A stretch of 45,733 bases of DNA, from positions 1 through 45,733 of the forward strand of contig NJDO01000001.1 of assembly GCA_002254385.1 (NCBI GenBank). The letters are read 5' to 3'. A program made the translations under genes and the position numbers. Below the pieces are notes generated by a model that saw nothing but the letters and a program-made list of their open reading frames with translations, did not search any database and was not told the DNA's origin. Of this stretch, positions 1,428-31,640 are shown piece by piece; positions within the stretch are counted from its first letter, which is position 1, and the number at the start of each line of letters is the position of its first letter. This DNA comes from Thermoplasmatales archaeon ex4484_6 (GTDB lineage: Archaea; Thermoplasmatota; Penumbrarchaeia; Penumbrarchaeales; Penumbrarchaeaceae).

Positions 1428-4400
1428 GTGAAGAGTTTACGATATTCCGTTCTTCTGATGGTCCTTGTTCTGGCCGCCGTCGATCTTGGTCTGCCCGCCT
1501 CATCCGATATGGTATCACATGAAAGGGGGAGCCCGGCAAGGGAGCTCTCCCCGTCCGGACCGATACGGATCGAAAGCGATACGGATTTCAACGCGACCGC
1601 TGCTGCGGAGGGATGGCCCGGTAACGGTTCTCCCGATTCACCATACATCATCGAGAACCTCGATATAGATGCGAACGGAGCCGATAATGCCGTGATGATC
1701 AGCAATACAACTTATGATTTCATCATCAGGAACTGCATAATGAGAGGGGCAGGATCGAATGGATATCGGATCGGCGCGGGTATGGGCATTCTGATCGATA
1801 ACGTTCTGAACGGAACTATCGAATCGAATGAATTCGTGGACAACCTGAATGGAGGAATATATCTTCGCAACTCCAGGAAGATGATCGTGAGGAACTGCAC
1901 GGTATCGGGGGACGAGGGATACATTGGCCTGGTCGGAGAGGCCCTGCAAGAGGTAAGGATAGAGGACTGCAGCTTCCGGCTCAGCCATGGAAACGGTATA
2001 TTCGTATCTTCCTCGTCCAGCATCATACTGAAGAACAACCATATCCCCCGGCCGCTCGAATACGGTATGAGCATCCGTTCAAGTTCGGATATGCTGCTGC
2101 AGGAGAATACTATCGGTAGTGGCGATCGTTTTTCCCTGCTTCTTTACATGGTTGTGAACAGCAGGATGTACTCGAACCGTCTTCTCGGGACCAGGTTGTC
2201 TGTCTCGATATTCCCTCCGTTCTTCGGAACACTGGAGATCCCCCCTAACAATACGGTTGACGGGGCTCCGATCTACTTCTTCAAGAACGGCGATTTCTCG
2301 GGGGAAAGGGTTCCCCTGGATGCGGGCCAGGTCATAATTCTGAACGTGACGGGGTTGGAGGTTGCCGGGCTTCGTTTTCACGGGTCCGGTAATGCAGTGA
2401 CCATTTCGTCATCATCAGGGATCCTTCTGGATTCCAATATCTATGAAGGAATTGATTCTCCCGTCTACTCGGAAGCCGTTATTATTGCCCAAACGATCGA
2501 TGGCCTTGTAATAAGGAACCAATCGATGACCGACATCGGGATTTACGGGATCGATCTGATCGAATGCAACGATGTCCGGATAGAGGAATGCATGTTCGAG
2601 AACGTATCGACTCCGATCCGGGCGTCCGGTGGTGGGAACCTTTCCGTGTGGAACAACACGATGAACGGGTCCGACCAGGGCGTTCGTCTTGAAAGGGTTG
2701 AGGATGTCCTCCTGGCTTCGAATCATGTAAAGGGATTCTCATCAGCGGGGATGTATGCAAACAGCTGCCTGAAGCTGAACGTGACCAATAACACTCTAAC
2801 TGGAGACGATAACCTTCATGACGGGTCCTCTGGTATCCGCATTGTTACATCGAAAGATATTCTCCTTTCCGAAAATACGGTGGAACGTGCTGGTAGAGGG
2901 ATCGTTATCTCGGGGGATCTTTTTATCCTCTCTTCCGGGATCCGGGTTTTCTCTAACATCATCCGGGACATGAACGGAACCGGACTGGAGATAATTATGT
3001 CGAGGGATTGCCTCGTCCGATCGAATCTGTTCTTCAATAATTCCGCCTTCGGAACGAGTCTTTCCGATGTGGAGAATGCAACAATGCTTTCGAACACCTT
3101 CATCGCGAATAATGGTGCAGGCGAGGAGTATTCCACATTGACCATACAGGCGTCCCAGCAGGGAAGCTCCTGCGTCTGGTCCGTCGATGGAAGAGGCAAT
3201 CACTGGAGCGATTGGACATCACCCGATGAGGACTTGGACGGCATAGTGGACCTCCCTTACCTCATATTCGGTTCGACCGTGTACGACGAATACCCGGTCA
3301 CGGAACCCATGTTCACATTTCTATCGGCACCCTCCTCCTTTGAGGTCCTTAGCGGAAGGGATTCCGTCGAGCTTCATTTTTCCAGGCCGGTCTTCGATCT
3401 TGATGGGTCCTTTTACGGATACCTGGTATTCAGAAGTACCGGGGAGGAGGGGAACTGGACATCCATGTTCCTCGGGTCCTCCCGAACCATGTTCCTGGAC
3501 GAGGACGTGGAGGACGGCCAGGTCTACCATTACTACATGAGAGCACTGAACAGGTACGGAGAGGGAAATAGGACCCGCATCCTAACCGCTGTACCGGATT
3601 CCTCCCCTCCCGCCGTGACCATCATTTCACCCGAAGAGGGAGCCGTGGAAGGAAATGCGGAAGTGGACGTATCCTGGAATATGACGGACAATATCGGGGT
3701 GACGGAGGTTCTCATCTCCCTGGACGGCGGTGCAATGATGGATGCGGGTTTGGGAACAAGCTTCCATCTATCGAACCTTACGGAGGGCCCCCACTCGGTT
3801 CGGATCCTTGTATTTGACGCCCTGATGAACAACGCCTCGGCCATTGTAAATTTCACGGTGGACATATCCCCTCCCGGGGTCGTCATACTGCAGCCCCGGA
3901 ACGGGACCGTTCTCAACATGACCGTGATCCATGTTCGATGGGACGGCACCGATGATGTCTCGAAAATATCCCGCTATCTCCTGAAACTTGACGACGGCCC
4001 GTGGTCCGATATGGGGAATTCCACCGAGGCCGATGTGGATGCGGGATCTCCTGGCATTCATGTTGTCCGGTTGAAGGCAGTGGACGTGGCCGGTCATGAA
4101 TACACGGCTGCGGTGGAGGTCCTCGTGGACATTGCTCCACCGGAGCTTTTCATCTCCTACCCGCCCGACGGATACAGCACGACCTCCTCGACGGTGAAGA
4201 TCTTCTGGGTGGCATATGACAGGGACAGTGCCATGGCCTCTTTCGAGCTCCGTCTCGACGGTGAGCTTGTCGGGGAGCTGCCGGCCGGTGCATCCAACCA
4301 TACCCTGACCGGTCTGACCGTGGGCAGCCATATCCTGATGTTGAGCGGTCGGGACATCGCGGGAAACATGAGGACGTCGATCATCAGCTTCGAGGTCATC

Positions 4401-4826
4401 GAAGAGGTGCATGAAGCCGAACTCGTGGTGATATCCGGCCGAATTGTTGACAGCGATGGCAATCCCGTAGGTGGTGCCAGGATAGAGTCGGGTACCGGTG
4501 AGGGTGCGATCAGCGATTCCGGGGGATACTTCTTCATCGAAATGGAGAGGGGTATCGTGACCCTCACCATCACCAGGAAGGGATACAAGGATGTGTACAT
4601 CAATATCGACGCCAGATACGATGGCAATGAATCATTGGATGACATCGTGATGGAGAAGGAGAGGGAAGAGGACAATGATTCAGCATTGGTTGAATTATTC
4701 CGTTCCAATACATACTGCCAGGTCTGCTGCGGGGCGTTGATAATCGTTCCGATCTTTCTCATGCTCCTGGGACTTCTTGCACGGTCCAGGTCGAGATCAA
4801 GGAAGAGAAGGGAATATGAGGAATAG
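1428..4826 (+). CDS. Giant surface protein: signal peptide, right-handed beta-helix (NosD/PbH1-like), Fn3-like domain, 3 Ig-like modules, CarboxypepD_reg-like domain, C-terminal TM anchor
   Basis: 1132-aa ORF with a GTG start at 1428, 7 nt downstream of GGGAGGG. Signal peptide 'MKSLRYSVLLMVLVLAAVDLGLPASS'. Repeated 'N..I..N.I..N..GI' beta-helix turns. NosD-type end motif 'GNHWSDWTSPDEDLDGIVDLPY'. 'ISGRIVDSDGNPVGGARIE' matches CarboxypepD_reg. Terminal TM 'ALIIVPIFLMLLGLLA' followed by 'RSRSRSRKRREYEE'. Many N-x-S/T sequons. Confidence 0.85.
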   Translation: MKSLRYSVLLMVLVLAAVDLGLPASSDMVSHERGSPARELSPSGPIRIESDTDFNATAAAEGWPGNGSPDSPYIIENLDIDANGADNAVMISNTTYDFIIRNCIMRGAGSNGYRIGAGMGILIDNVLNGTIESNEFVDNLNGGIYLRNSRKMIVRNCTVSGDEGYIGLVGEALQEVRIEDCSFRLSHGNGIFVSSSSSIILKNNHIPRPLEYGMSIRSSSDMLLQENTIGSGDRFSLLLYMVVNSRMYSNRLLGTRLSVSIFPPFFGTLEIPPNNTVDGAPIYFFKNGDFSGERVPLDAGQVIILNVTGLEVAGLRFHGSGNAVTISSSSGILLDSNIYEGIDSPVYSEAVIIAQTIDGLVIRNQSMTDIGIYGIDLIECNDVRIEECMFENVSTPIRASGGGNLSVWNNTMNGSDQGVRLERVEDVLLASNHVKGFSSAGMYANSCLKLNVTNNTLTGDDNLHDGSSGIRIVTSKDILLSENTVERAGRGIVISGDLFILSSGIRVFSNIIRDMNGTGLEIIMSRDCLVRSNLFFNNSAFGTSLSDVENATMLSNTFIANNGAGEEYSTLTIQASQQGSSCVWSVDGRGNHWSDWTSPDEDLDGIVDLPYLIFGSTVYDEYPVTEPMFTFLSAPSSFEVLSGRDSVELHFSRPVFDLDGSFYGYLVFRSTGEEGNWTSMFLGSSRTMFLDEDVEDGQVYHYYMRALNRYGEGNRTRILTAVPDSSPPAVTIISPEEGAVEGNAEVDVSWNMTDNIGVTEVLISLDGGAMMDAGLGTSFHLSNLTEGPHSVRILVFDALMNNASAIVNFTVDISPPGVVILQPRNGTVLNMTVIHVRWDGTDDVSKISRYLLKLDDGPWSDMGNSTEADVDAGSPGIHVVRLKAVDVAGHEYTAAVEVLVDIAPPELFISYPPDGYSTTSSTVKIFWVAYDRDSAMASFELRLDGELVGELPAGASNHTLTGLTVGSHILMLSGRDIAGNMRTSIISFEVIEEVHEAELVVISGRIVDSDGNPVGGARIESGTGEGAISDSGGYFFIEMERGIVTLTITRKGYKDVYINIDARYDGNESLDDIVMEKEREEDNDSALVELFRSNTYCQVCCGALIIVPIFLMLLGLLARSRSRSRKRREYEE
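3600..4397 (+). repeat. Three tandem ~88-89-aa Ig-like modules (coding repeats) inside the 1428-4826 gene
   Basis: Residues 725-812, 813-901 and 902-990 each start x-x-P-P-x-V/L-x-I and end F-x-V-D/E. They share internal W, D..S.I..Y.L.LDG and AxDxAGN-like positions. Confidence 0.7.
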
Positions 4827-4957
4827 GGAGAGCGGTTAATCAAATCAGATAATAATAAATAAGAAAAGCAACTTGCCACAAAAGCCCCGCCGGATATTCG
4901 TCGTATCCATTTCGCGGGGAAGACAGGGAGATGTGCCCTGAAAGGGGTGAATCCAAA

Positions 4958-4968
4958 GGAAGTGATCC
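4958..4968 (+). promoter_or_regulatory. Shine-Dalgarno GGAAGTGATCC upstream of rpl15e
   Basis: One mismatch to GGAGGTGATCC, the complement of the conserved 16S rRNA 3' end. The identical 11-mer precedes hutH at 17821-17831. Confidence 0.6.
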
Positions 4969-4970
4969 GC

Positions 4971-5585
4971 ATGTCGAAATCGGTTTATGGTTATATTTCC
5001 GAAGCATGGAAGAGACCCTATGATGGCGAGATGAAAGAGCTGAACCGTCAGAGGTTGATAGAGTGGAGGCACGGTCCGACCTTTGAGAGGGTGGACCGCC
5101 CCCTGCGGCTGGACCGCGCAAGGGCCCTGGGTTACAGGGCCAAGCAGGGCTATGTCATCGTAAGGGCCAAGGTAAGGAAGGGTTCCCTCAGGAAGAGGGC
5201 CATTCGAAAGGGTCGAAGGGCCAAGCGAAGGGGTCTTATCAGGATGAGGGTCAACAAGAATCTCCAGAGGATAGCCGAGGAGAGGGTGGCAAAACGCCAT
5301 TCGAACATGGAGGTCCTCAATTCCTATCTGGTTGGAGAGGACGGGAAGCACAAATTCTATGAGGTCATACTCGTGGACCCCCATCACCCCGCGATAGTCA
5401 AGGATCCCAAGATGGGATGGATCCACGAGGTCCAGCATACCGGAAGGGTCTACAGGGGCCTCACGTCCGCCGGAAAGAAGAGCAGGGGTCTGAGGAACAA
5501 GGGCATTGGTGCAGAGAAGAACAGACCCTCCGTGGCAAGGCACAAGCACAGAAAGAGACCCGGGAAGAAGGTCAGATTCAGCTGA
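4971..5585 (+). CDS. rpl15e: 50S ribosomal protein L15e
   Basis: 'MSKSVYGYISEAWKRP...RLIEWR...RVDRPLRLDRARALGYRAKQGYVIVRAKVRKG' is the conserved L15e N-terminus. I chose the ATG at 4971 over the ORF-track GTG at 4947 because GGAAGTGATCC (4958-4968) sits immediately upstream. Confidence 0.95.
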   Translation: MSKSVYGYISEAWKRPYDGEMKELNRQRLIEWRHGPTFERVDRPLRLDRARALGYRAKQGYVIVRAKVRKGSLRKRAIRKGRRAKRRGLIRMRVNKNLQRIAEERVAKRHSNMEVLNSYLVGEDGKHKFYEVILVDPHHPAIVKDPKMGWIHEVQHTGRVYRGLTSAGKKSRGLRNKGIGAEKNRPSVARHKHRKRPGKKVRFS

Positions 5586-5596
5586 TCCGTGGATGA

Positions 5597-7096
5597 TCAA
5601 ACGAGTCGTTCCGGGCACTGGTCCCTTCTGGAGCAGTGCCTGCATTTCCCCTCTCGCTCATGGTTCCTGTGAGCCTCTCCCGTCCTCTCGGCCTCCCTTA
5701 TCTCCGAAACCTTGGAGAGAACCATCGCTTTCAGAAGCATGTCCCATTCCACTTTATGCCTGGTCCTGTTTCCGTTGGGCGGAACGTACTCGATGTAACC
5801 GTAAGGGGTTTCCTGATGGATGTTCACATCTATGAGCAGCAGGTAGACACCCAGCTGCATCACATGGCTGAAGTGGGGTTTGACAGGTGCCCGTCCGGTC
5901 TTTATCTCGACAGGGATCATCTTTCCGTGTTCCTCGATTATTATATCCGGGGAACCCACGAGATAATGCTTCTTCGAGGTAAGGGGTTTCCCCCTCATTC
6001 CCGAACCGATGTCATCCGCCATTTTCACGTGTGAGTTCACCGGCAGGCCGGCCGCTCCTTTGGCATCGTGGGCTTCCCGGTCGTATCTAGCTCCCTTGAC
6101 GAGGAAGAATACGGCCCCGATCAACCACAATCCGGCCATGATAATGCTTATCATGCCATAGTCCTCGAGATGTTCTCCCCTGGCAAGGAATGCCATCACC
6201 ATGAAGATCGAGGCCACGAGCGCCATCGTTGTCACGGGCAGGCTGCCCTTTCTACCTTTGCCACCCGCATTCACTCCCTTTCTCGACATCCGGATGATGT
6301 CAAAGACGAGAGCCCCCAGGAACCAAACGAGGGACAGGGAGAGGAACACCCATCCGAACGTTCCGTTCGGGTCTATCCTGTCGGACCATATTATGAAAAG
6401 AACGGAGATGGATACGACGAGCATGAGCACGAGCGGCATTCCAATGCTCAGCTCCCTTTTTTCCCTGCCTGTCTTTCTTGCACGGATGAACGAGGCAAAA
6501 TACACTATGAGAACACCGTAAAGGAACAGCAGCGAGGTTGTCAGTACGGTGACTATGATATCATTCGGCATTCCGAGTGGGCGAAGGAGTACCACCCCGT
6601 TGATGAGCAGTATCAGGCCCAGCACGTAGGAGAGGACCGGAAGGAATCTCCCCGTGCTCCTGCTGAATTCCATTCTCCTGATCGTATTTATGAATCCGGT
6701 CATCGGGCCTTTTCTTCCGGAAAAAGGGGTCAGAATGTATATGGTCGTGGAGATGAGCAGCAGCAGAATGGAAACGATGATGACAACGATCCTCCACAAA
6801 GTTCCTTTCAGGAATCCGACATTGGTGAGGAGTATGAGGAGAAATGCCATCATGATGATGATGGCGGAGAATGAGAGGAATGCCATTGTGATGGTCCGTG
6901 CCTTCCTCGATTCCTCCTCGCGGGATATTATTCGGGTGATCTCCCTCCCGATCCGCTCATGGGCCTTTCTGCCCTCCGTCAAAGGTATGGAAGAGCCGGT
7001 TCTTCCCTGCCTCTCGATCAGCCAGGAAACGGGACAGTAGGACCATCTCTCGACCTCGGATGCCGAGATAAGCCTGTCGGGATCCCATTCTGCCAT
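5597..7096 (-). CDS. Cas4/DUF83-family PD-(D/E)XK nuclease interrupted by an 8-TM membrane domain
   Basis: ORF-track numbering from the TTG at 7105. Hallmarks: 'SEVERWSYCPVSWLIE' (C24), 'GRKAHERIG', eight hydrophobic segments across residues 72-337, 'GSPDIIIEEHGKMIPVEIKTG' (D387/E400/K402), 'QLGVY' (Q417/Y421) and C488-x2-C491-x5-C497. I prefer the ATG at 7096 because the TATA-like ATATATAT (7121-7128) is 25-32 nt upstream, which suggests a leaderless transcript. Confidence 0.8.
   Translation of the reverse strand: MAEWDPDRLISASEVERWSYCPVSWLIERQGRTGSSIPLTEGRKAHERIGREITRIISREEESRKARTITMAFLSFSAIIIMMAFLLILLTNVGFLKGTLWRIVVIIVSILLLLISTTIYILTPFSGRKGPMTGFINTIRRMEFSRSTGRFLPVLSYVLGLILLINGVVLLRPLGMPNDIIVTVLTTSLLFLYGVLIVYFASFIRARKTGREKRELSIGMPLVLMLVVSISVLFIIWSDRIDPNGTFGWVFLSLSLVWFLGALVFDIIRMSRKGVNAGGKGRKGSLPVTTMALVASIFMVMAFLARGEHLEDYGMISIIMAGLWLIGAVFFLVKGARYDREAHDAKGAAGLPVNSHVKMADDIGSGMRGKPLTSKKHYLVGSPDIIIEEHGKMIPVEIKTGRAPVKPHFSHVMQLGVYLLLIDVNIHQETPYGYIEYVPPNGNRTRHKVEWDMLLKAMVLSKVSEIREAERTGEAHRNHEREGKCRHCSRRDQCPERLV
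6095..6892 (-). other. Membrane insertion (about 8 predicted TM helices) splitting the Cas4-like fold
   Basis: Hydrophobic 20-25-aa stretches separated by short R/K-rich loops, for example 'AFLSFSAIIIMMAFLLILL', 'IVVIIVSILLLLISTTIYIL', 'VLSYVLGLILLINGVVLL', 'IIVTVLTTSLLFLYGVLIVYFASF', 'MPLVLMLVVSISVLFIIW', 'WVFLSLSLVWFLGALVF', 'TTMALVASIFMVMAFLA' and 'ISIIMAGLWLIGAVFFLV'. Confidence 0.7.
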
Positions 7097-7120
7097 TGTT
7101 TTCAATAGAGAAGGGGGGGC

Positions 7121-7128
7121 ATATATAT
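7121..7128 (-). promoter_or_regulatory. TATA box (ATATATAT) for the membrane Cas4-like gene
   Basis: 25-32 nt upstream of the ATG at 7096 on the coding strand, which is leaderless geometry. Confidence 0.5.
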
Positions 7129-7395
7129 CGTTTTGTCATTTTTCCATCCCATGTGAATAAGCCCGTCCAGCAAGTGATCCTGCTGAATACCTGCATGCGG
7201 CGGTCGAACGACCTCGAATGCCGGTGTTCCTAATGCTCGCTCGATGTCTGATATACCCGGGATCGGGGGGAAAGATGGACCTGTCATGAATTCCTGCCAG
7301 CAACTCGTTCGGACATCCGGATCATTCGATACTTCATGGATCTTGTTCTTCATACCTGCGGGGCCGTGAAAACGTAGGTACCGGCAGCTCCGGAC

Positions 7396-7914
7396 ATGAA
7401 TCAGGAAAACAATTATTATCAATCAGGATTGTTGACACTCATGGATCGGACAAGGTTTCTTTCCTTCTCGATACTGTCCGTTTTTCTTATCACAATCATC
7501 GTCATAGGTGTGTTCCTCCATTATCCTTTGAATCTCATCGTTGATGGGATCGCCCTTGCAGTGGTCGGAATTGCCGCCCTTGTCTATATTGTGATATGGT
7601 CCTTCCTGGGAGACAGGATAGTCGTACATGATGACCACATGAAGGTGATGACGAGGAGATTTCCCATATGGTCGATCAAGGAAAGAGTGATCTACTTCCA
7701 TGAGGTGTCCCATTACATTGTTAACGGCTCCGATATGATACTGCTCACGAAAAAGGAGGATATCTTTCATATTTACAAACCGGAATCGGAGAAAGGAATG
7801 AGGATCCACGATCTTCCGGCAATCATGGAGAGGAAGGGGATTACAAGGATGGCCTACAAGGACTTCATAAAAAAGAAGAGCGGGAAAAAGGGCAGCTACA
7901 TGACGAAGATCTGA
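7396..7914 (+). CDS. Hypothetical membrane protein: 2 TM helices plus a ~100-aa cytoplasmic beta-rich domain (bacterial-PH-like topology)
   Basis: 172-aa ORF with an ATG start. TM helices 'FLSFSILSVFLITIIVIGVFL' and 'GIALAVVGIAALVYIVIWSFL', with a Lys-rich C-terminus. Visibly more A/T-rich than its neighbours. I recognised no catalytic motif. Confidence 0.6.
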   Translation: MNQENNYYQSGLLTLMDRTRFLSFSILSVFLITIIVIGVFLHYPLNLIVDGIALAVVGIAALVYIVIWSFLGDRIVVHDDHMKVMTRRFPIWSIKERVIYFHEVSHYIVNGSDMILLTKKEDIFHIYKPESEKGMRIHDLPAIMERKGITRMAYKDFIKKKSGKKGSYMTKI

Positions 7915-8045
7915 TAGTTCGAGATGCCATCAATCCAAACGGCTCGTCTTGAGAATAATATGGCAAATTTTTGTACATTCATCCCGGAATCCGCATCCAT
8001 TAAATATCATTTAACTGATGATATTCATCAAACGGGGGAAAAGCA

Positions 8046-11000
8046 ATGAGGTCATGGAGTATGGTAAAGGCAGTTTCGGCATTGTCCCTGATCGTCCTCT
8101 CGTCGCTCATGATGGGGGGCATCCTGTCCGGTGAGGAGAGGGCCTTCCCACCACCGGGACACTGGGCGAAGGTATTCTTCAACGTCACCTTCGAGGATGA
8201 TTCTCCGGTTGACGGAGCCCTGATAGAGATAAAGGCCTACCATTCGTCAATGATGTACACGGAAACCGGAGTGACGAATTCCGCTGGGAAAGCGATGGTG
8301 AATGTCACCGGGGTGAACTGGGGACCCTGCTGGATACAGGTGAAGGACAGCTCCGAGGACCATTTTATCAGGTTCGACAGGTTCATCTCCCCGGATGAGG
8401 TGATATATCTCGACATCGTCCTGCCCGAACATCTTCCCTACGACAGATACATCAACGGGACACTGCGGTACCTAAATAACGGCCTTCCCGTTTCCGGCTC
8501 CATTGTGAGGATTCAGGGAGAGGATTCCATGGGACGTGCGGTCGATGAGACGGATACTACTGATGGTTCGGGGCAATTCCATCTGACCGTACCCTATTCC
8601 GCATCGGTGTATTCCCTCACGGCCCTTCCCCCGGTTCCTACAATTGACAGTTCCGAGATAGTGATACAGCTGGATCCCGCCTCGAAAGAGTATTTCTACG
8701 AACTCTATCTGCGCCCCACCCTTGTGAGGACCGTACCGATAAGCATCGGTGTCTACAACTCATCAACGATGAAGAACATGACTGGAAGCAGCTGCCGCAT
8801 CGATGGTACGGCCGTGGATAAGGACATGTCAAGAGATTACGTCAATCTTGGAAAGGATCCGGTATCCGGTCGATTTGAAGGGGATGTCATGAAAGGGAGC
8901 TACAATCTCCAGTGGGAATCCGTGGAGGACACGCATTGGAACATCTCCTATTATCTCAATACCTACATCTACGTGAACGATACCCCTTTGAATATGGACA
9001 TCCCCATGGATACGATCGAGGATCTCAGGGGAGTTCGATTGGAGATATGGAAGGATTCGGGGCCGCTCGGATACTGTCATGTCGACTATTACCATACTAT
9101 CGGATCCGAGGGTGAATCTTACACGAGTATCAACATGATGCAAACCGCAGATTCCTCGGGAAGATTGTTCTTCGGGATTCCCGCCGGGGAGGAGATACGA
9201 TTATCGGTATGGTATTATGGATACAGGGAGAGAGAGATCGTGATACCACCTGGGACCTCCTCAGAACCCGTGGAGCTCAATGTCACACTGGAGAAGAGCT
9301 CCGCCTCAACATTTCCCATGGGTAACATTTCTTTGAAGGTAATAGACGGTCTGACAGGCATCCCGGTTCCACGGGCATCGATATCCGCCAGTGCATGGGA
9401 TGAAGAGGGTTCTTATCACAGTTACTTTCGCAGTACCAATGAGTTCGGTTATTCCAATGGAACACTGGATGCCGTTACATATTCATCCGTTGATGTGAAG
9501 CATTCGCTGGGATACGCATCCGCCAAGAACGTCACGATCGCGGAAGGAGAGACAACGGTACTTACGGTCGCCCTCGAACGGTGGGAGATGCCGGAATCAT
9601 TGGATACGTATATCCTTCATCTTGCGGATCCCGAGGGGAATCCGGTCTCGGGAGTGCCCATGCGTATCAGTCCCTCCCCATCATCGGCCCTTTCAAGGTC
9701 CTGCTCGGATTCCACCGGACGGATCGTCTTTCATGGAAAGGAGGGAGAATACAACATTCATGTGGAAGCTCCCGGAGATCACTGGTTCTATTCTCCCAGG
9801 TGGCAGGAGGAGAGGACGACGTTCCACTTCCCGGCAGGAGGAGGGGACCTTGGGACCCTCACACTCTATCCATTGGACGGAATGGAAGCCGTAGAGGGAT
9901 CGGTCCTCGATTCTTCGACAATGGACCCCGTCCCCTTCGCCAATATCCATGGAGAATCCTTTCATCCGCTCGAGGGAGGTACGAGGGACATGTGCCGTGA
10001 ATATCCCTGGGCCGTGGAATTCTTTTCCGATATGGCGCAGGATCGGGGACCCGGTATAACTCTCTTCACGGACCATACCCATTCCGTTGCGGATGGATAC
10101 TACAGGGTATGGGGAAAGGAAAAGGTTTACATAAGATGCTCCACGGAGGGATACTTCCCGTACCAGGGGCTTGTTGACCTTACAACCAGGGCAGGGGATA
10201 CTAACAATATTCTGCTGGATCCGATACCTCCTGCAACAAGCCACATCGTCGGCATGATTCAGGATGAGAACGGCAATCCGATCCCGGGGACCATATATCT
10301 CATAGAACAGGATCATCCCGATAATCTTTTTGATGCTCTGGATGTGGGGGAGAACGGGACCTTCGACATCCGGCTCCATCCGGCATCGTACAGGATCATC
10401 TACGGGAACGAGACACTCCACAACGAGACATTACTGGAAGTCAACGAGAGCGGCATTGAAGATCTCATTCTACCCCTTATACCATACTCCTACATCAACG
10501 GGACCGTGACGAACGGATCGGGAGCTCCCCTCCCCGGTTTCAACGTTTCGCTTTATCCCGCAGGGGAAGCCGTTCCCCCGATCGATTCCAGGCAGACGGA
10601 CGGGAACGGGAACTTCTCGTTCCTTGCAAGGAGCGGAGATTACAGGATAGAGGTGAATGGAACGGACCAATATCTGGACCTTTCCCTGAACATTCCAGGT
10701 GTTACCGGATGGAACGACATCCATCTGGATGTGGTCCTCTACAACAGAACCTCGGGGAATGTGGAAGGTGTCGTCAGGGGAGATGGAGGCCCCCTCGAAG
10801 TGGCGGTTCCCAATGCATCCGTCATGCTGAGGAATTCCACCGGCGGCATCCTGGCAGAAACGATGACGGACTCTCTCGGCCATTTCGTTTTCAACAATGT
10901 TCAGTTCGGGAGCGGGTATTATATTATCGTGGAGCCTCCCAGTGATTGGAAGAAGACAACGGAAGGTGGCCACGGTTACCTGAACCTCACAACCGACAGG

Positions 11001-11831
11001 TTCGACCTGCACACACGGGTTCTGTTCCTCGATCTCGTCCTTGAATACATCGAGCCTCCGCTCCCCGGTTTCTTCAACGTGACCCTGCATTCTCCCGTGG
11101 GCACCGGGGTGCTGCTGGACGAGCCTGTACGATTGTCATTCTCCGATGCGGTGAACTCCTCATATCTGGAAGGGAATCTTTCCGTATCACCCCTGGTGGG
11201 AAACCTGACCTTCAGATGGAACGGGGATGGAACGGGGGTCGTGATCGACCACGATGACTTCCGGAAGAACACCACATATACCGTTACCATCTCCGGCCTG
11301 TTGACCTCTTCCTCGGGGAAGCTTCTGTGGGGCGAGGGGGATTTCAGCTGGAATTTCACAACAGGCGATGAGACCGGTGCCTGGAACCTCATCACGGCCA
11401 CGGTGGAAACCCTCTCCGACAGGACCACCTTCTTCAACGCTACCGGGGATCCGGGCCTGACGGTCCATGTGGTCATCGAGGGGAAAGGCTCGTACATGCT
11501 GGTGGAAGCCGGGGCCGGCATCTATTCCGTCGAGATACCACCCGGGGACCTTGAATGGGACACGGAATACTTCTACCATTTCTCCGATGTCATCGACGGT
11601 CCCGATCTGGCACCCGATCTGGCAGGGAGCTTCAGGACCGCGGCCCGGCCTTCGGTACAGGGAGGTGACGACGACGATGATGACACATCGAAGGAAGATG
11701 AGAGCAGCGATGCGTGGAAGATAGTCCTTTTTGTCATCCTCGTCCTGCTGATACTCGCGGTGCTCACAGCGATCTTGGTCCTGCTTGCCGCAAGGTCCGG
11801 GAAGGGCGGGTACGGAGGGGAAGAGGAATAG
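8046..11831 (+). CDS. Giant surface protein with repeated CarboxypepD_reg/Ig-like beta-sandwich domains, an SbsA/Big_5-like Ig domain, an acidic stalk and a C-terminal TM anchor
   Basis: 1261-aa ORF with an ATG at 8046. Signal peptide 'MRSWSMVKAVSALSLIVLSSLMMGGILSG'. Recurrent 'G.V.D..G.P..GA.I' strands. 'PVRLSFSDAVNSS...TYTVTISG...' is SbsA_Ig-like. Poly-Asp run 'GGDDDDDDTSKEDESSD', then 'WKIVLFVILVLLILAVLTAILVLLAA' and 'RSGKGGYGGEEE'. Confidence 0.85.
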   Translation: MRSWSMVKAVSALSLIVLSSLMMGGILSGEERAFPPPGHWAKVFFNVTFEDDSPVDGALIEIKAYHSSMMYTETGVTNSAGKAMVNVTGVNWGPCWIQVKDSSEDHFIRFDRFISPDEVIYLDIVLPEHLPYDRYINGTLRYLNNGLPVSGSIVRIQGEDSMGRAVDETDTTDGSGQFHLTVPYSASVYSLTALPPVPTIDSSEIVIQLDPASKEYFYELYLRPTLVRTVPISIGVYNSSTMKNMTGSSCRIDGTAVDKDMSRDYVNLGKDPVSGRFEGDVMKGSYNLQWESVEDTHWNISYYLNTYIYVNDTPLNMDIPMDTIEDLRGVRLEIWKDSGPLGYCHVDYYHTIGSEGESYTSINMMQTADSSGRLFFGIPAGEEIRLSVWYYGYREREIVIPPGTSSEPVELNVTLEKSSASTFPMGNISLKVIDGLTGIPVPRASISASAWDEEGSYHSYFRSTNEFGYSNGTLDAVTYSSVDVKHSLGYASAKNVTIAEGETTVLTVALERWEMPESLDTYILHLADPEGNPVSGVPMRISPSPSSALSRSCSDSTGRIVFHGKEGEYNIHVEAPGDHWFYSPRWQEERTTFHFPAGGGDLGTLTLYPLDGMEAVEGSVLDSSTMDPVPFANIHGESFHPLEGGTRDMCREYPWAVEFFSDMAQDRGPGITLFTDHTHSVADGYYRVWGKEKVYIRCSTEGYFPYQGLVDLTTRAGDTNNILLDPIPPATSHIVGMIQDENGNPIPGTIYLIEQDHPDNLFDALDVGENGTFDIRLHPASYRIIYGNETLHNETLLEVNESGIEDLILPLIPYSYINGTVTNGSGAPLPGFNVSLYPAGEAVPPIDSRQTDGNGNFSFLARSGDYRIEVNGTDQYLDLSLNIPGVTGWNDIHLDVVLYNRTSGNVEGVVRGDGGPLEVAVPNASVMLRNSTGGILAETMTDSLGHFVFNNVQFGSGYYIIVEPPSDWKKTTEGGHGYLNLTTDRFDLHTRVLFLDLVLEYIEPPLPGFFNVTLHSPVGTGVLLDEPVRLSFSDAVNSSYLEGNLSVSPLVGNLTFRWNGDGTGVVIDHDDFRKNTTYTVTISGLLTSSSGKLLWGEGDFSWNFTTGDETGAWNLITATVETLSDRTTFFNATGDPGLTVHVVIEGKGSYMLVEAGAGIYSVEIPPGDLEWDTEYFYHFSDVIDGPDLAPDLAGSFRTAARPSVQGGDDDDDDTSKEDESSDAWKIVLFVILVLLILAVLTAILVLLAARSGKGGYGGEEE

Positions 11832-11854
11832 TCGTCACCCCGGTGGACCCGGCC

Positions 11855-11875
11855 GGGTGATATTCGATATCACCC
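11855..11875 (+). terminator. Perfect 9-bp hairpin between the 8046 giant gene and subtilase 1
   Basis: GGGTGATAT-tcg-ATATCACCC, 24 nt after the stop at 11831. No T-run follows, so a terminator function is uncertain. Confidence 0.3.
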
Positions 11876-11924
11876 AAAAGGGATATATGGACGTATTTAC
11901 CATGAAGCCACGGGTGGTTCGGAA

Positions 11925-14270
11925 TTGTTCAGCTCCCTCTCCCGAAGGTTCACACTCCTGGCACTGCTGACGACCATGGTCCTCGTAATTCCGCAGGGCT
12001 CGGCCCTTGACGTCGGGCGCATCGATCCGAGGCTGAGGACCCATGACATACCCGGAGGCTCGGTCGACCCCTATCTCGAGAAGGTCCTGGAAGGGGATCA
12101 TGAAGAGAGGATGAGGGTCCTGGTCCGGTTCAGCAGCTGGCCGATAGAGGACGATATAGGATTCGCAAGGGAGATAGGCATGGACCATCTCTGCACGATG
12201 AAGGTTCTTCCCGTGGCCTGGCTGGAAGGTACGGAGGAACAGATAAGGACCCTGTCGAACTACCGCAGGACGGAATGGATGGAGTATGACGGCGATCTGG
12301 ACCTGTTCATGGAAAGGTCCCTCACGACGATAAACGCGACAGTTGCCTGGAATTCGTGGATAGAGAGGACGCCCAACAGGTACGAGACCATTGACGGCAG
12401 CGGGATAACGGTGGTGGTCCTCGATACCGGGATAGATGCCGGTCACCCGGACCTGGACTATGGTGAGAAGACCCTTGTCAATCTGAAGGCGGACATACCG
12501 GGAGCACCATGGTATGAACTGGAGAATTCGGATACCAGTTATGGCCACGGCACCCATTGTGCGGGTACGATAGCGGGGAACGGTGACGCTTCCGCGGGGG
12601 CAAGGTCCGGGGTGGCCCCCGGAGCGAACCTGATCGGGCTGTGTGTCGGTGATGTGGGGATCACGCTGACGAACACCTACTACGGTCTGGAATGGGTTTA
12701 CGAGAATTCCCGACCCCCGAACCCGTACAACATAAAGGTTGTGTCCAACTCGTGGGGAGGGGGAGCGGCGGAATATGACCCCCAGGATGCCACTTCCCTC
12801 ATCTGCCAGAAGATAACGTTCGAGAACAACGTACTGGTGGTGTTCGCGATGGGTAACGCAGGGAGCGGGGATCATGACGGTTCCGAACTGACGGCATCGC
12901 CCACCGGTCTGATACCGTCGAATATCGGAGTGGCGGCCACAGAAAGGGATGGCTCCGGCATCGCCTATTTCTCGTCCCGGGGGGAGAAGGGAAAGAACCA
13001 CACTTATCCGGACGTTGCAGCTCCCGGGGTCAAGATATGGTCCGCCCATGCAAGATTGACGGAGATATCCGCAATGTCCAAACTTCGAGGAAATCCCAAC
13101 CCCTATTATCTGGCCATATCGGGCACCTCGATGGCGACACCCCATGTATCGGGGCTTGCCGCCCTGATGTTCCAGGCTGCTCCGTCATTGAGGATATCAG
13201 ATAGATGGGAGGATTATTCGGGGGATGATCCCGAAGCATGGTATTCGAACACTTTCAACAGGATCCATGAGATAGAATGGATAATGGAGCAGTCAGCGAG
13301 ATACATCCAGCCGGACGGCATCCCACTATCGGACGAATCGGGGGACAATGGTGTTCCCGAGCCAGGGGACAGGGGGCCAACCGAGGTGGGATGGGATGGG
13401 AAACCCATAGATTGGGCGCAGGGATACGGTCTTGTGGATGCGGAGAAATGCGTGGGGATCGCGCTGACACTGCAGGAATTGAGGGACCGATGGCCTCAGA
13501 CCGAATGGAACGTCAATGACGCGATCAGGATATACGAGGAAAGGGAGGTGTTCCACAGGTCCGCCATCACTGCCGAGACGGACATCCTCGAGACGGGATG
13601 GGAGGGCGAATTCGCGAGATATGCACAGGACCAGGACGGTCCGCTGCTCGTGCAGAACCAGTCCAGATTGATATGGATACCCGAGCATGCGGTGGAGCTT
13701 TCCATATTGATGAACTATGATCTCGTGAACATCCAGGACAGGACCGTGGGGGACCTCACATTCGTGATAGATTTCGACAATGACGGTGTGTTCGATTACC
13801 AGCATCCCTTTCTCGGATCCCGCCTGACAGGTACCAAATCCGAAACCCTGCCGATAGACAGTGAAGATACGGGAAGGTACTGGGCAATCGGCGTCTACGG
13901 CCAGGGTTTCAAGGTCATAAGGCCGCTCAAGGACAGGGAATTCATGGAGCTGAGGATAGAATACACCATGGGGCTCCGACTCAGGATGGACGTGGGATCG
14001 CAGGAGGATGTGGTGGTATCTCCCCCTCCGCCCAGTTCCCAGGTCTCCGCATGGATGCCCGGGGAGTCATCTCCCGACCATGCCGGAGGAAGACTGATTC
14101 TGGAGGGGGTCGAGTACGATATTTCAAGGGTCCAGCCGCTTCCCGAACCCGAGAAGGGGATGGAGAAGGGTGGATTCCCGTGGTGGTGGATCCTCCTGCT
14201 GGCTGCCGCTGTTCTCTTCGGTGGAGCCTTCTACCTGAGAAAAAGAAAAGGGAGGCGAAGCAGGGAATGA
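11925..14270 (+). CDS. Membrane-anchored subtilisin-like serine protease (peptidase S8), copy 1
   Basis: Catalytic triad contexts 'VVVLDTGIDAGHPDL' (D), 'HGTHCAGTIAGNG' (H) and 'GTSMATPHVSGLAA' (S), with oxyanion 'SNSWGG'. The only in-frame start after the upstream stop that retains a signal peptide is the TTG at 11925, giving 'MFSSLSRRFTLLALLTTMVLVIPQGSA'. C-terminal TM 'WWWILLLAAAVLFGGAFYL' followed by 'RKRKGRRSRE'. Confidence 0.9.
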   Translation: MFSSLSRRFTLLALLTTMVLVIPQGSALDVGRIDPRLRTHDIPGGSVDPYLEKVLEGDHEERMRVLVRFSSWPIEDDIGFAREIGMDHLCTMKVLPVAWLEGTEEQIRTLSNYRRTEWMEYDGDLDLFMERSLTTINATVAWNSWIERTPNRYETIDGSGITVVVLDTGIDAGHPDLDYGEKTLVNLKADIPGAPWYELENSDTSYGHGTHCAGTIAGNGDASAGARSGVAPGANLIGLCVGDVGITLTNTYYGLEWVYENSRPPNPYNIKVVSNSWGGGAAEYDPQDATSLICQKITFENNVLVVFAMGNAGSGDHDGSELTASPTGLIPSNIGVAATERDGSGIAYFSSRGEKGKNHTYPDVAAPGVKIWSAHARLTEISAMSKLRGNPNPYYLAISGTSMATPHVSGLAALMFQAAPSLRISDRWEDYSGDDPEAWYSNTFNRIHEIEWIMEQSARYIQPDGIPLSDESGDNGVPEPGDRGPTEVGWDGKPIDWAQGYGLVDAEKCVGIALTLQELRDRWPQTEWNVNDAIRIYEEREVFHRSAITAETDILETGWEGEFARYAQDQDGPLLVQNQSRLIWIPEHAVELSILMNYDLVNIQDRTVGDLTFVIDFDNDGVFDYQHPFLGSRLTGTKSETLPIDSEDTGRYWAIGVYGQGFKVIRPLKDREFMELRIEYTMGLRLRMDVGSQEDVVVSPPPPSSQVSAWMPGESSPDHAGGRLILEGVEYDISRVQPLPEPEKGMEKGGFPWWWILLLAAAVLFGGAFYLRKRKGRRSRE

Positions 14271-16585
14271 GGTTCGCGTCCCCCACGCTTCTCGTCTTGC
14301 TGTTCCTGGTATCCTTACAGGTATCTCCGTCGACATACGGTGTCCCTCCCGGGAACGAGGGAGGCGATATCATCCTGTCGAAGCTTTCGGTCTCCCTCCT
14401 TCATGCGGGCATCGAGGTCCGAGACGGTGTCCTGGTCCATGAACTGTGTGACCGGGATCCACTACCGGTGCTGCTGCATGTCGATGAGGGTAAGAGGGGC
14501 GCTCTCCGCCCGAGGCTCGTGGAAATGGGCGTCAGGATGGGTTACAGATTCACCTCTCTGGAGGTGTACGAAGCATGGGCGCCTCTTGATGTCATGCCCC
14601 GTTTGACCCTGCTGGATGAGGTGACCTACATCGAATGGAACGCTCCCGGCACCTTCGACACGGAGATCTCGACAGCCGCGATAATGGCCCCCAGGGTCTG
14701 GTCATCCGTCATCAGGGACGGCTCTTCTGTCAAGGAGGGGATCAGGGGGCGCGGGATCGGAATTGCGGTCGTTGATTCGGGAATAGATGCCGGTCACCCG
14801 GACCTTGACTACGGCTTCAAGACCGTGAAGAACATCAAGGCCGTGAGGGCCGGTGACCCCTGGGTGGAGATGGAGAACACCGACACTTCGGTGGGACACG
14901 GCTCCCACTGTGCCGGTATCTCCGCCGGCAACGGGGATGCCTCCGCGGGGGGACGGTCGGGTGTGGCTCCGGAGGCGAACCTCATAGGGCTCTCGCTCAC
15001 CGAAGGTGACGAGGAGGTATCGACATCGAACTATCTTTACGGCCTGGAATGGGTGTTCGAGAATTCCAGACCGCATGCGAACCCCTACAACATCAAGGTA
15101 TGCACGAATTCGTGGCACACAACGGTCGGAGAGTACGATCCGGAGATGGCACTGTCGAAGATCATAAACAGGCTGACATACGAGAACAATGTCGTATGCA
15201 CGTTCTCGGCAGGGAACGACGGGAGGCAGGATCCGGAGGGTACGGTGGTATGGACCTCCCAGCAGGGGAACACACCCTCGGCCGTGATGGTGGCGGCCTA
15301 TGCGAGGGACGGGTCCTATGTGGCGGAGTTCACATCCCACGGCCAGGTGGGTCTGAACCATACCTATCCTGACGTGGGGGCGCCAGGGGTCAGGATATGG
15401 TCCGCCCATGCGAGAAGGACCGGGATATCCGCGGGTTCCAAACTGTCCGGTAATCCGAATCCCTACTATCTTGCAATATCGGGGACATCGATGTCCACTC
15501 CCCATGTTGCCGGAACGGTCGCGCTTCTCTGGGAAGCATGCCCTTCGATGGGTATTTCCGGATGGGAGGAGGATTACAACGGGTCGGACCCGGAATGGTT
15601 CCATTCGCACGAGTTCAGGTTCGTCCATGATGCGGAGCTCATACTGGAGGCATCCGCGACTCCCATACCCTTCAGGGAAGGGTCGGGCGATTCGACCGGC
15701 GTCTTCGTCGACGATCCCTCCGTGGGATGGGGCGGGAGGGAGATCGATTACGCCCAGGGTTACGGTTTTATCGATGTGGAGAAGGCCGTGGGCATCGCTC
15801 TCACCCTTCAGGAACTGAGGAGCAGGTTCCTTGACAGATACGTCGATGTATTCACAGCACTGAAGGTGTATGAGGGCGCAATGGACCTCAACCTGTCGGT
15901 CGCATCCTCCACATTGATGACCTCATGGGAAGGGGAGTATTCCCGCTTCAACGACCAGAACGGCAAACCCCTTGTGGTCCAGAACCAGACCAAGCTGGTC
16001 TATGTCCCGGAAGGGGTGGGGTCGATGAGCATTACACTTGAATATGACGCCCTCTCACTCCCGGACATGTACGTTGGCGGTCTGACGGTCGATGTCGATA
16101 CGGACGGTGATGGTCAGGCGGATTTCAGCGGGGGCCCGCCTCTTGCACCCGGAACAAGGACATTCCGGATCCCGGTGTCGGGAACGGACGTCTTCTACCG
16201 CGTCATGATAAGGGGTCAGGGGATAAAGGTGATACGACCCGTAAGGGAAACGAGCTACGTGGAACTGAGGATACCGTATTCCATCACGGTGGAAATGGAG
16301 CTTGACACCCAGGGAGCCGAGGTCCCGAGGGAAGCATATTCGAGTGCAATGGGTGCTTTCATCATAGGGGACGGCAGAGAGTCCCCTGTCAACAGCACAT
16401 TGGGGATCAGGGTCTACGATCTCGGCGGCATAGGCGACCCGTTCGGGGAAGAGGGATATCGTGAGAGGGGCGAGGCCCCCTCCTCCCTGCTGTTGATAAT
16501 CCTGCTCACCGCAGCGGTGACATTGCTGTCCATTTACGGATATCACAGGATCAGGAAAAGGAATCGGAAAGGGGGAGAATCCTGA
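14267..16585 (+). CDS. Membrane-anchored subtilisin-like serine protease (peptidase S8), copy 2 (tandem paralogue)
   Basis: 'VAVVDSGIDAGHPDL', 'HGSHCAGISAGNG' and 'GTSMSTPHVAGTVA'. The ATG at 14267 overlaps the copy-1 stop (ATGA) and gives the signal peptide 'MRFASPTLLVLLFLVSLQVSPSTYG'. The longer ORF-track start at 14051 lies inside copy 1 and I reject it. C-terminal TM 'LLLIILLTAAVTLLSIYGY' followed by 'HRIRKRNRKGGES'. Confidence 0.9.
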   Translation: MRFASPTLLVLLFLVSLQVSPSTYGVPPGNEGGDIILSKLSVSLLHAGIEVRDGVLVHELCDRDPLPVLLHVDEGKRGALRPRLVEMGVRMGYRFTSLEVYEAWAPLDVMPRLTLLDEVTYIEWNAPGTFDTEISTAAIMAPRVWSSVIRDGSSVKEGIRGRGIGIAVVDSGIDAGHPDLDYGFKTVKNIKAVRAGDPWVEMENTDTSVGHGSHCAGISAGNGDASAGGRSGVAPEANLIGLSLTEGDEEVSTSNYLYGLEWVFENSRPHANPYNIKVCTNSWHTTVGEYDPEMALSKIINRLTYENNVVCTFSAGNDGRQDPEGTVVWTSQQGNTPSAVMVAAYARDGSYVAEFTSHGQVGLNHTYPDVGAPGVRIWSAHARRTGISAGSKLSGNPNPYYLAISGTSMSTPHVAGTVALLWEACPSMGISGWEEDYNGSDPEWFHSHEFRFVHDAELILEASATPIPFREGSGDSTGVFVDDPSVGWGGREIDYAQGYGFIDVEKAVGIALTLQELRSRFLDRYVDVFTALKVYEGAMDLNLSVASSTLMTSWEGEYSRFNDQNGKPLVVQNQTKLVYVPEGVGSMSITLEYDALSLPDMYVGGLTVDVDTDGDGQADFSGGPPLAPGTRTFRIPVSGTDVFYRVMIRGQGIKVIRPVRETSYVELRIPYSITVEMELDTQGAEVPREAYSSAMGAFIIGDGRESPVNSTLGIRVYDLGGIGDPFGEEGYRERGEAPSSLLLIILLTAAVTLLSIYGYHRIRKRNRKGGES

Positions 16586-19356: not shown

Positions 19357-19524
19357 GACCCATTCCCCGCATGGCCCCCCGTCTCTGGCCAATCCAGCAC
19401 CATTTCCCTTCATGGAAAATTAAATATGTTAAAACGATAATACTTCACAGGCTCAACCAAACTACTGCCACCAGTGTGTCAAGTGGTCAGGTTTCCTAAT
19501 AGAGATGTGTGTCAGGTGGGGCAT

Positions 19525-31517: not shown

Positions 31518-31640
31518 GGGGGGTCGAATGGCATCATTCCCATATATCCGTATGGATGCCCGTTTCCGAATGGCCCGACCCGCACCTTTGGACATAAGAG
31601 ATTTATACCAATTCCTGCGTTGAAAAGCCGGGGTCCTCAA
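31518..31640. promoter_or_regulatory. Divergent promoter region (HAD phosphatase / GH-cadherin gene)
   Basis: ATATAT (31542-31547) lies 25-30 nt from the minus-strand ATG at 31517. ATTTATAC (31601-31608) lies 33-40 nt from the plus-strand ATG at 31641. Confidence 0.45.

Follow-up and report, generated by a model that had tools for sequence, protein, structure and literature searches.

A Cas4-family nuclease fold interrupted by a predicted eight-helix membrane domain and encoded outside any CRISPR context in a Thermoplasmatota archaeon

The window analyzed here is a 45.7-kb stretch of DNA (45,733 nucleotides, contig NJDO01000001.1, forward strand) from Thermoplasmatales archaeon ex4484_6. On its minus strand lies a gene for a 499-aa protein, the N- and C-terminal segments of which carry the motifs of Cas4-family PD-(D/E)XK nucleases and are separated by 273 residues predicted to form eight transmembrane (TM) helices. 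A preliminary description of this DNA, made from its letters, had read the open reading frame (ORF) as a nuclease fold split by a membrane domain, with no clustered regularly interspaced short palindromic repeat (CRISPR)-Cas context. The parts of the gene are listed below, with residues numbered in a 502-aa frame that starts at a TTG (subtracting 3 gives the position in the 499-aa protein) and TM helices assigned by hydropathy.

5597..7096, minus strand: complete gene, 499 codons plus a TGA stop at 5597-5599
7121-7130, minus strand: TATA-like box CGATATATAT, about 25 nt upstream of the ATG (sequence reading)
6896..7096, minus strand: N-terminal Cas4 segment, aa 4-70, two short helices with C24 and then the motif I helix
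7034-7036, minus strand: first cluster cysteine, C24 (in SYCP)
6956-6973, minus strand: motif I helix GRKAHE with H49
6077..6895, minus strand: inserted membrane domain, aa 71-343 (273 residues), four helical hairpins, eight TM helices
6824-6892, minus strand: TM1, aa 72-94
6728-6796, minus strand: TM2, aa 104-126
6581-6649, minus strand: TM3, aa 153-175
6491-6559, minus strand: TM4, aa 183-205
6383-6451, minus strand: TM5, aa 219-241
6290-6358, minus strand: TM6, aa 250-272
6179-6241, minus strand: TM7, aa 289-309
6095-6157, minus strand: TM8, aa 317-337
5600..6076, minus strand: C-terminal Cas4/PD-(D/E)XK core, aa 344-502
5945-5953, minus strand: motif II, SPD387
5900-5908, minus strand: motif III, E400-I-K402
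5843-5857, minus strand: Q417LGVY421 (QxxxY)
5660-5671, minus strand: family-specific H479-R-N-H482, six residues ahead of the cluster cysteines
5615-5644, minus strand: C488-x2-C491-x5-C497

As mechanically called, the ORF reaches further upstream (5597..7105, minus strand, TTG start) and contains an in-frame ATG at 7096. This ATG is the probable translation start since P0001, the closest homologue (499 aa, 94% identity), begins at the equivalent ATG, as do most other relatives, with MAEWDPDR or, more generally, MxEWDxDR. The spacing of the TATA-like box would fit a leaderless or near-leaderless transcript. The preliminary description takes its coordinates from the ATG start and its residue numbers from the TTG frame, a harmless inconsistency.

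The Cas4 hallmarks quoted in that description (C24, GRKAHE, D387, E400/K402, Q417/Y421, and CX2CX5C) are all present in the sequence, and profile searches with the native protein point to the family. The protein matches PDDEXK_1 (Pfam PF12705) over profile positions 120-247, with 38.5 bits (E value 1.6e-9, above the gathering score), and Cas_Cas4 (PF01930) with 37.4 bits against a cut-off of 22.7 (E value 3.5e-9), the Pfam matches above the gathering score coming from the C-terminal ~130 residues. Cas4 models in PADLOC match down to an E value of 1e-18, and a relative with four TM helices (P0057) reaches 100.4 bits against TIGR00372, the cas4 equivalog of NCBIfam. Sequence matches in the PDB are weak but specific, to Cas4 (4r5q, 4ic1) and the AdnAB nuclease domain, and in the same search the N-terminal segment aligns with the N-terminal Cys helix of all three. 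An AlphaFold2 model of the full protein, built on a 33-sequence alignment, has a mean predicted local distance difference test (pLDDT) score of 67.8, rising to 84-93 in the core (aa 380-470), and a Foldseek search of the PDB with this model aligns the core over ~130 columns with the type I-C Cas4 8d3l (E value 2.4e-4), MGME1, and ACE1. In the same 33 sequences, down to 38% identity, C24, H49, D387, E400, K402, Q417, Y421, C488, C491, and C497 are invariant, as are S14, A15, E17, E19, R20, Y23, P25, W28, and G45 in the N-terminal segment, and the catalytic and cysteine motifs are found in 138-142 of 142 complete relatives. Judged from these alignments, the catalytic and cluster residues are shown to be under purifying selection. 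The H-R-N-H sequence (aa 479-482) is also invariant and is retained as RxH in split and soluble relatives; to our knowledge, HRxH is not a canonical Cas4 motif. It might shape the surroundings of the cluster, supply an additional ligand, or touch DNA.

For comparison with CRISPR Cas4, we used SSO0001 (4ic1), Pcal_0546 (4r5q), the type I-C Cas4 in 8d3l, and the Cas4-Cas1 fusions 7mi4 and 7mi5. The window protein shares with them a RecB-like core (motif I His, motif II Asp, ExK, and QxxxY) and one N-terminal plus three C-terminal cysteines, the latter as CX2CX5C, and it is to CRISPR Cas4 that its best HMM (hidden Markov model) and fold matches point. However, canonical Cas4 is a compact soluble domain of ~160-220 aa, in which a loop of ~16 residues takes the place of the 273-residue, eight-TM insert of the 499-aa window protein. 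The latter also has the extra invariant HRxH, falls just under the TIGR00372 cut-off in its native form, and is encoded with no cas1, cas2, or array nearby. The same fold occurs in AddB and AdnA-AdnB (6ppu, 7sjr), MGME1 (5zyt, 8xa9), and ACE1 (9iac), which were recovered by sequence or fold search and act on DNA ends outside CRISPR; AdnAB and ACE1 even have the same cysteine arrangement. In contrast to the window protein, these enzymes are soluble, helicase-fused, or Argonaute-paired, and none is membrane-integrated.

Deletion in silico of residues 71-343 leaves a spliced protein of 229 aa, which aligns with PDDEXK_1 in one continuous alignment over profile positions 3-247 of 247 (43.1 bits). 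Its score against TIGR00372 rises from the 62.5 bits of the native protein to 66.5, past the cut-off of 65, and in the Cas4g/Cas1g model it covers positions 2-189 of the Cas4 part. The spliced protein is also colinear from end to end with P0151, a soluble relative of 198 aa that came from the representative search (30% identity, E value 2e-33), the splice junction mapping to a short linker in that protein, and in Pcal_0546 (4r5q) the equivalent flanking segments are only ~16 residues apart. These continuous alignments place the insertion after the motif I helix and ahead of the first core strand, and the end-to-end matches to PDDEXK_1 and P0151 thus bear out the earlier reading of a fold split by a membrane domain.

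As for the membrane domain, for which helix counts and topology are hydropathy-based predictions, its eight segments have Kyte-Doolittle means of 2.2-2.9 over 19 residues. Loops 2-3, 4-5, and 6-7 are rich in Lys and Arg and predicted to be cytoplasmic. Lys plus Arg averages 4.7 in the N-terminal flank, even-numbered loops, and C-terminal flank, versus 0.97 in the odd loops, a roughly five-fold bias that is the signature of an N-in/C-in topology. Helix number is 4 or 8 in the 142 complete proteins and 2 in further representatives of ~255-306 aa. Odd counts (3 and 7) were rejected as threshold artefacts, the homologous "LSWLIGASYWL" helix scoring just 1.2-1.5. The even helix count that had been proposed to put both nuclease halves on one face therefore holds for this protein (8) and for its relatives (2, 4, or 8), and the charge bias agrees with it.

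Comparison of the hairpins points to how this domain may have arisen. In the 4-TM proteins, hairpin 1 matches hairpin 2 with an hhalign probability of 99.2% (E value 2e-19), and the 4-TM hairpin unit is matched at 88-96% by hairpins 3 and 4 in the window's clade, hairpins 1 and 2 having diverged; shuffled controls gave at most 4.6%, and no column-shuffled or reversed control exceeded 6.3%. These matches indicate that the membrane block grew through the addition of duplicated two-helix units, a mode of growth that would always keep the helix count even. The second helix of each unit retains an LWLIGAxFF-like motif, and N169, W104, W261, and W327 are invariant. Taken in isolation, the membrane block has no match in Pfam or NCBIfam (best E value 0.058) and no credible structural match in the PDB by Foldseek. 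In the AlphaFold2 model, the motif I helix is continuous into TM1 (helix 40-96), and TM8 into a cytoplasmic helix (313-352); with moderate confidence, such continuous helices would keep the nuclease domain near the bilayer.

The preliminary description had dealt with this one protein; its architecture is real but not unique. A word-indexed protein search recovered 46 full-length homologues of ~499 aa (38-94% identity, E values below 1e-100), together with shorter (~320-347 aa) and longer (516-645 aa) relatives. Independent NCBI, JGI, ENA, and Logan assemblies provide more than 140 complete homologues; nearly all belong to Thermoplasmatota, with the same order of parts and conserved length classes, and the 2-TM relatives likewise come from this phylum. 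An assembly chimera or mis-called gene fusion, which the preliminary description had wanted excluded, is rejected on these grounds. When one genome per GTDB species was scanned, at least 242 encoding loci were found, a lower bound set by the search patterns. Labels of the 80 loci kept are Thermoplasmata, Thermoplasmatota, DHVE2, Methanomassiliicoccales, halophilic "plasma" lineages, "Methanobacteriota," or plain "archaeon," with one "Aenigmatarchaeota." A profile search of 1.84 billion representatives returned 81 clusters at E values of 1e-30 or better. The window protein thus appears as a member of a phylum-wide family, in which 2- or 4-helix forms are commoner than 8-helix ones. One 8-TM relative from the representative search (P0119, 635 aa) has two C-terminal TRAM domains (Pfam E value 1.5e-15) and, as called, no N-terminal Cys segment, which may be separately encoded or lost to a truncated gene call.

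Below an E value of ~1e-26, the representative search lists many proteins of ~175 aa that start with a single TM helix, run directly into the core and CX2CX5C, and lack the N-terminal Cys/His segment. These form at least 994 clusters, the few organism-named members of which are "Cas4" in Anaerolineae/Chloroflexia metagenome-assembled genomes. At four such loci, a same-strand ORF of 82-93 aa upstream of the TM-core gene encodes "...LLRASEIGQWxYCxRAWWL...G..xH...", one TM helix, and a stop. The genes at these loci, including a TRAX/translin-like gene, are as follows.

L089: TRAX/translin-like gene 4102-4737; small ORF 4734-4994; TM-core gene 5001-5519
L092: TRAX/translin-like gene 3980-4606; small ORF 4704-4985; TM-core gene 5001-5510
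L093: TRAX/translin-like gene 3393-4037; small ORF 4034-4282; TM-core gene 5001-5558
L094: TRAX/translin-like gene 2189-2821; small ORF 2894-3157; TM-core gene 4001-4531

In L092, the small protein matches Cas_Cas4 positions 3-41 (E value 0.008), and its partner matches positions 53-158. As read from these sequences, the Chloroflexota hairpin is cut in the outer loop into two polypeptides. Since each part of this natural split carries one of a pair of TM helices, the N-terminal segment and the core would meet in trans on the same side of the membrane, which provides strong comparative evidence that the two function together on one side. The split form shares with the window protein the N-terminal Cys/His segment, the core with RxH-CX2CX5C, and paired membrane helices, but consists of two polypeptides (~85 aa and ~175 aa), is bacterial, and forms an apparent operon behind the TRAX/translin-like gene. 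That gene lies directly upstream of the pair in all four loci and matches AfTRAX (3zc1, E value 1.3e-18), as well as NCBIfam PRK14562 models labelled "haloacid dehalogenase superfamily"; its position suggests an operon of nucleic-acid-processing proteins. Near the archaeal copies, no TRAX-like ORF was found in 88 loci. The two split genes are separated by a YkuD L,D-transpeptidase gene in L093 and L094.

There is no CRISPR array, Rfam match, or cas gene in the window, and no cas1, cas2, other cas gene, or array within ~6-8 kb of the gene in 83 related loci, in agreement with the lack of CRISPR-Cas context first noted for the window. The protein is thus a Cas4-family member encoded outside any cas locus, a Solo-Cas4 in the operational sense. 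Like described Solo-Cas4 proteins (Hudaiberdiev et al. 2017, PMC5704561; M. mazei, PMC12501428), it is encoded by a stand-alone chromosomal gene with no CRISPR context, but those proteins are soluble, and the 2017 phylogenomic survey of Cas4 makes no mention of transmembrane segments (PMC5704561).

The homologue search that had been proposed recovered relatives with the same insertion, and neighbors were clustered over the 83 loci. Of these, 22 have a gene for ribosomal protein L15e downstream in convergent orientation, 17 have a divergent S8 peptidase gene upstream, and 15 have an IF-2B-family gene upstream; this recurrence is lineage-specific synteny. Searches for mobile copies found no relatives in IMG/VR or among GenBank phages; in PLSDB, there were core-domain matches on two Planctomycetes plasmids and no copy of the whole architecture. 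A virus-borne Cas4 was accordingly rejected, with none in IMG/VR or GenBank phages, and PADLOC returned only generic Cas4/DruK nuclease models, with no defence-system signature. Stable housekeeping synteny and the absence of mobile copies fit a vertically inherited chromosomal gene rather than part of a defence island or mobile element.

Two further neighbors recur beside 4-TM genes. In 12-13 Methanomassiliicoccales-type loci, a PF14811 "TPD" gene (E value 8e-43) lies 4-59 bp upstream on the same strand, PF14811 being, we presume, the family of human CDIN1/C15orf41, a PD-(D/E)XK RNA nuclease. The archaeal PF14811 protein has no PDB sequence match, and the CDIN1 papers give no Pfam accession; CDIN1 itself has been reported as an RNA nuclease (PMC13463051). 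The other neighbor is a membrane ORF of ~105 aa with two hydrophobic helices, convergent with the gene in 28 four-TM loci, where their 3' ends overlap by 3-8 nt; this could reflect synteny alone or a functional pairing. In a single locus (L095), a 2-TM gene at 6001-6795 adjoins a type IV pilus-like cluster at 7389-12111, with T2SSE/PilB3, two T2SSF genes, and a pilin upstream.

PF14811-linked loci: L053, L054, L059, L068-L071, L073, L074 (3730-4545), L077, L083, L088
~105-aa ORF, L052: 5434-5751, minus strand, no Pfam match
~105-aa ORF, L041: 6978-7286, minus strand, no Pfam match

On balance, we think it probable, if well short of certain, that the gene encodes an integral-membrane, cytoplasm-facing PD-(D/E)XK Fe-S (iron-sulfur) nuclease of the Cas4 branch, which works independently of CRISPR and cuts or trims nucleic-acid ends at the membrane. 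The loop that links the motif I helix to the first strand of the catalytic sheet would have taken up an array of TM hairpins, four in this protein. Each hairpin brings in two helices, so that both the core and the N-terminal segment would stay cytoplasmic. By analogy with solved Cas4 structures, the two halves would reassemble into one nuclease domain, in which a [4Fe-4S] cluster may tie the N-terminal helix to the C-terminal tail and H49, D387, and E400 may bind metal. The product would be a metal-dependent, catalytically competent nuclease fixed at the inner face of the membrane, encoded by a stand-alone, vertically inherited chromosomal gene of Thermoplasmatota that is presumably independent of CRISPR adaptation, and its job would probably be to trim or cut nucleic-acid ends arising at the membrane. 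Scattered neighborhood hints point to RNA or single-stranded nucleic acid at least as much as to DNA entry. RNase Y, RNase E, and ComEC share the principle of a nucleic-acid-cutting domain fixed at the cytoplasmic membrane, but their folds are unrelated and they are anchored by terminal helices, by amphipathic segments, or through a separate channel domain; we know of none with hairpins inside the catalytic fold.

Several observations weigh against this interpretation. The native protein, at 62.5 bits, stays below the 65-bit cut-off of TIGR00372, and HMM recognition of the isolated N-terminal 70 residues is marginal (DUF2800, E value 0.001-0.02; Cas4g/Cas1g, E value 0.075). Of the two halves that had been expected to match nuclease profiles, the C-terminal one thus does so above curated thresholds, but the N-terminal one on its own does so weakly. 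In the AlphaFold2 model, the Cys tail has a pLDDT below 50 and most of the membrane domain is of low confidence; the nuclease core that had been looked for in a structure prediction is modelled confidently, but the docking of C24 and the C-terminal cysteines is neither confirmed nor refuted by the model. The spliced protein, predicted as a single sequence, reaches a pLDDT of 35. Clustering of neighbors over the 83 loci found no partner gene common to the whole family. Finally, the conservation of the hairpin motif suggests more than a passive anchor would need, and this is not accounted for by the proposed mechanism.

An innate defence role, in which a membrane-fixed exonuclease attacks the free end of linear viral or plasmid DNA arriving on the cytoplasmic face and degrades it, much as RecBCD or AddAB do with incoming linear DNA, seems to us unlikely. 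Its Cas4 relatives SSO0001 and Pcal_0546 and the AddB nuclease domains act on DNA ends, Cas4 models are the sole matches in the defence library, and the predicted cytoplasmic-face active site sits where entering DNA appears. However, the gene behaves like a core gene, with stable housekeeping synteny, phylum-wide vertical distribution, and no defence-island neighbors; it has no module or partner for self/non-self discrimination, and it was not found in the mobile-element collections searched.

To another reading we assign a similarly low probability, namely that of an enzyme processing RNA or single-stranded nucleic acid close to the membrane, an archaeal counterpart of RNase Y or RNase E acting alongside other nucleases. 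The split form behind a TRAX/translin-like gene in four Chloroflexota loci, the position 4-59 bp behind the PF14811 "TPD" gene in 12-13 Methanomassiliicoccales-type loci, and the two TRAM domains of the 8-TM relative P0119 all speak for it. These three links are, however, lineage-specific and none is found in the window's own clade; the 88 loci lack a TRAX-like ORF, the link between PF14811 and CDIN1 is a presumed one, and characterised Cas4 proteins are DNases.

An accessory role in DNA uptake or export, with the nuclease processing one strand as it crosses a translocation apparatus, as proposed for the ComEC nuclease domain, is distinctly improbable. The membrane location, the conserved hairpin motifs, and the T2SSE, T2SSF, and pilin genes beside the 2-TM gene of L095 would suit such a role, but L095 is a lone case, and the family's neighborhoods show no conserved pilus or translocase gene. 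Moreover, the active site is predicted to face the cytoplasm, and the hairpins lack a conserved charged or polar lining of the channel type.

It is very hard to credit that the protein is a genuine CRISPR-adaptation Cas4 whose gene lies apart from its array and which works in trans with Cas1-Cas2. Its nearest sequence matches are Cas4 models, the Cas4 part of Cas4/Cas1 fusions among them, and automatic annotation names its relatives "CRISPR-associated exonuclease Cas4"; against this stand the lack of cas1, cas2, and arrays in the window and around the gene in the 83 loci, synteny with ribosomal and metabolic genes, and a membrane tether that is hard to square with docking on Cas1-Cas2 at a chromosomal array. 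Least credible of all are an artefactual chimera or fusion, already refuted by the homologues from independent assemblies, and a decayed nuclease kept as a structural or Fe-S redox-sensing module, given that all catalytic residues are invariant.

Returning to the membrane-integrated Cas4-type nuclease that we favor, its hairpins might be more than an anchor. Soluble Cas4 SSO0001 is a ring-shaped oligomer, and one could imagine, as a rather doubtful proposition, a multimeric membrane ring with an Fe-S nuclease-lined cytoplasmic mouth, a gate for checking, trimming, or destroying nucleic acid that crosses or contacts the membrane. Such a gate would be a new kind of checkpoint for DNA or RNA entry or exit in archaea, and Chloroflexota would have its two-gene bacterial counterpart.

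Known members of the enzyme family are soluble CRISPR trimming enzymes, helicase-nuclease subunits, and "solo" proteins; here, the catalytic fold would be threaded through a membrane. There is no model for such an architecture in Pfam (2025), NCBIfam r20, or PADLOC, and full-text literature searches found no description of a membrane-inserted Cas4. A 2026 mSphere paper co-mentioning Cas4 and transmembrane helices was set aside, as it deals with a different, soluble Cas4-DEDD fusion. The membrane-threaded design, the modularity of the hairpins, and the split form are thus apparently undescribed. Natural insertion of two to eight TM helices within an enzyme fold is unusual, and the two-gene form offers a clean test case for the reassembly of a soluble domain across membrane hairpins. 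The scale is considerable, with at least 242 GTDB species representatives of Thermoplasmatota and, for the split form, at least 994 protein clusters, the named ones from Chloroflexota. The family would point to an unstudied nucleic-acid transaction at the archaeal membrane, with defence, uptake, and turnover as candidates, and its 4-TM form has cultivable carriers in the DHVE2/Aciduliprofundum and Methanomassiliicoccus lineages. Databases give these proteins generic names ("Dna2/Cas4 domain-containing," "PD-(D/E)XK nuclease family," and "CRISPR-associated protein Cas4"), and the last of these labels misleads counts of CRISPR components in metagenomes.

The rest of the window holds genes for S8 peptidases, histidine ammonia-lyase-type, BirA-type, and KaiC-like proteins, GAPDH, and sugar-modifying enzymes. 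A repeat at 5196-5235 (21-nt unit, 1.9 copies) lies inside the L15e gene, where it encodes a Lys/Arg-rich stretch, and was rejected as a CRISPR repeat. The 172-aa ORF divergent from the Cas4-like gene is not among the neighbors conserved in related loci. Other ORFs of the window are as follows.

4947-5585: L15e ORF (ORF reading; PF00827 was found on the syntenic gene in L001/L002, the window ORF itself being unscanned)
7396-7914, plus strand: 172-aa ORF, two N-terminal hydrophobic helices, no Pfam match
11925-14270 and 14051-16585: two S8 subtilase ORFs, overlapping by ~220 nt as mechanically called
1428-4826, 8046-11831, 19474-23826, 31071-34604, 38092-42477, and 42483-45263: six very large ORFs (926-1461 aa)

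The second S8 ORF probably begins downstream of the start called for it. Two of the large ORFs (1428-4826 and 8046-11831) end in a hydrophobic C-terminal anchor followed by a charged tail, and in three others, 19474-23826 not being among them, Pfam identifies right-handed beta-helix/NosD, Ig-like, cadherin-like, and CARDB domains. These large surface ORFs and the two S8 ORFs suggest a protein-degrading, surface-rich lifestyle.

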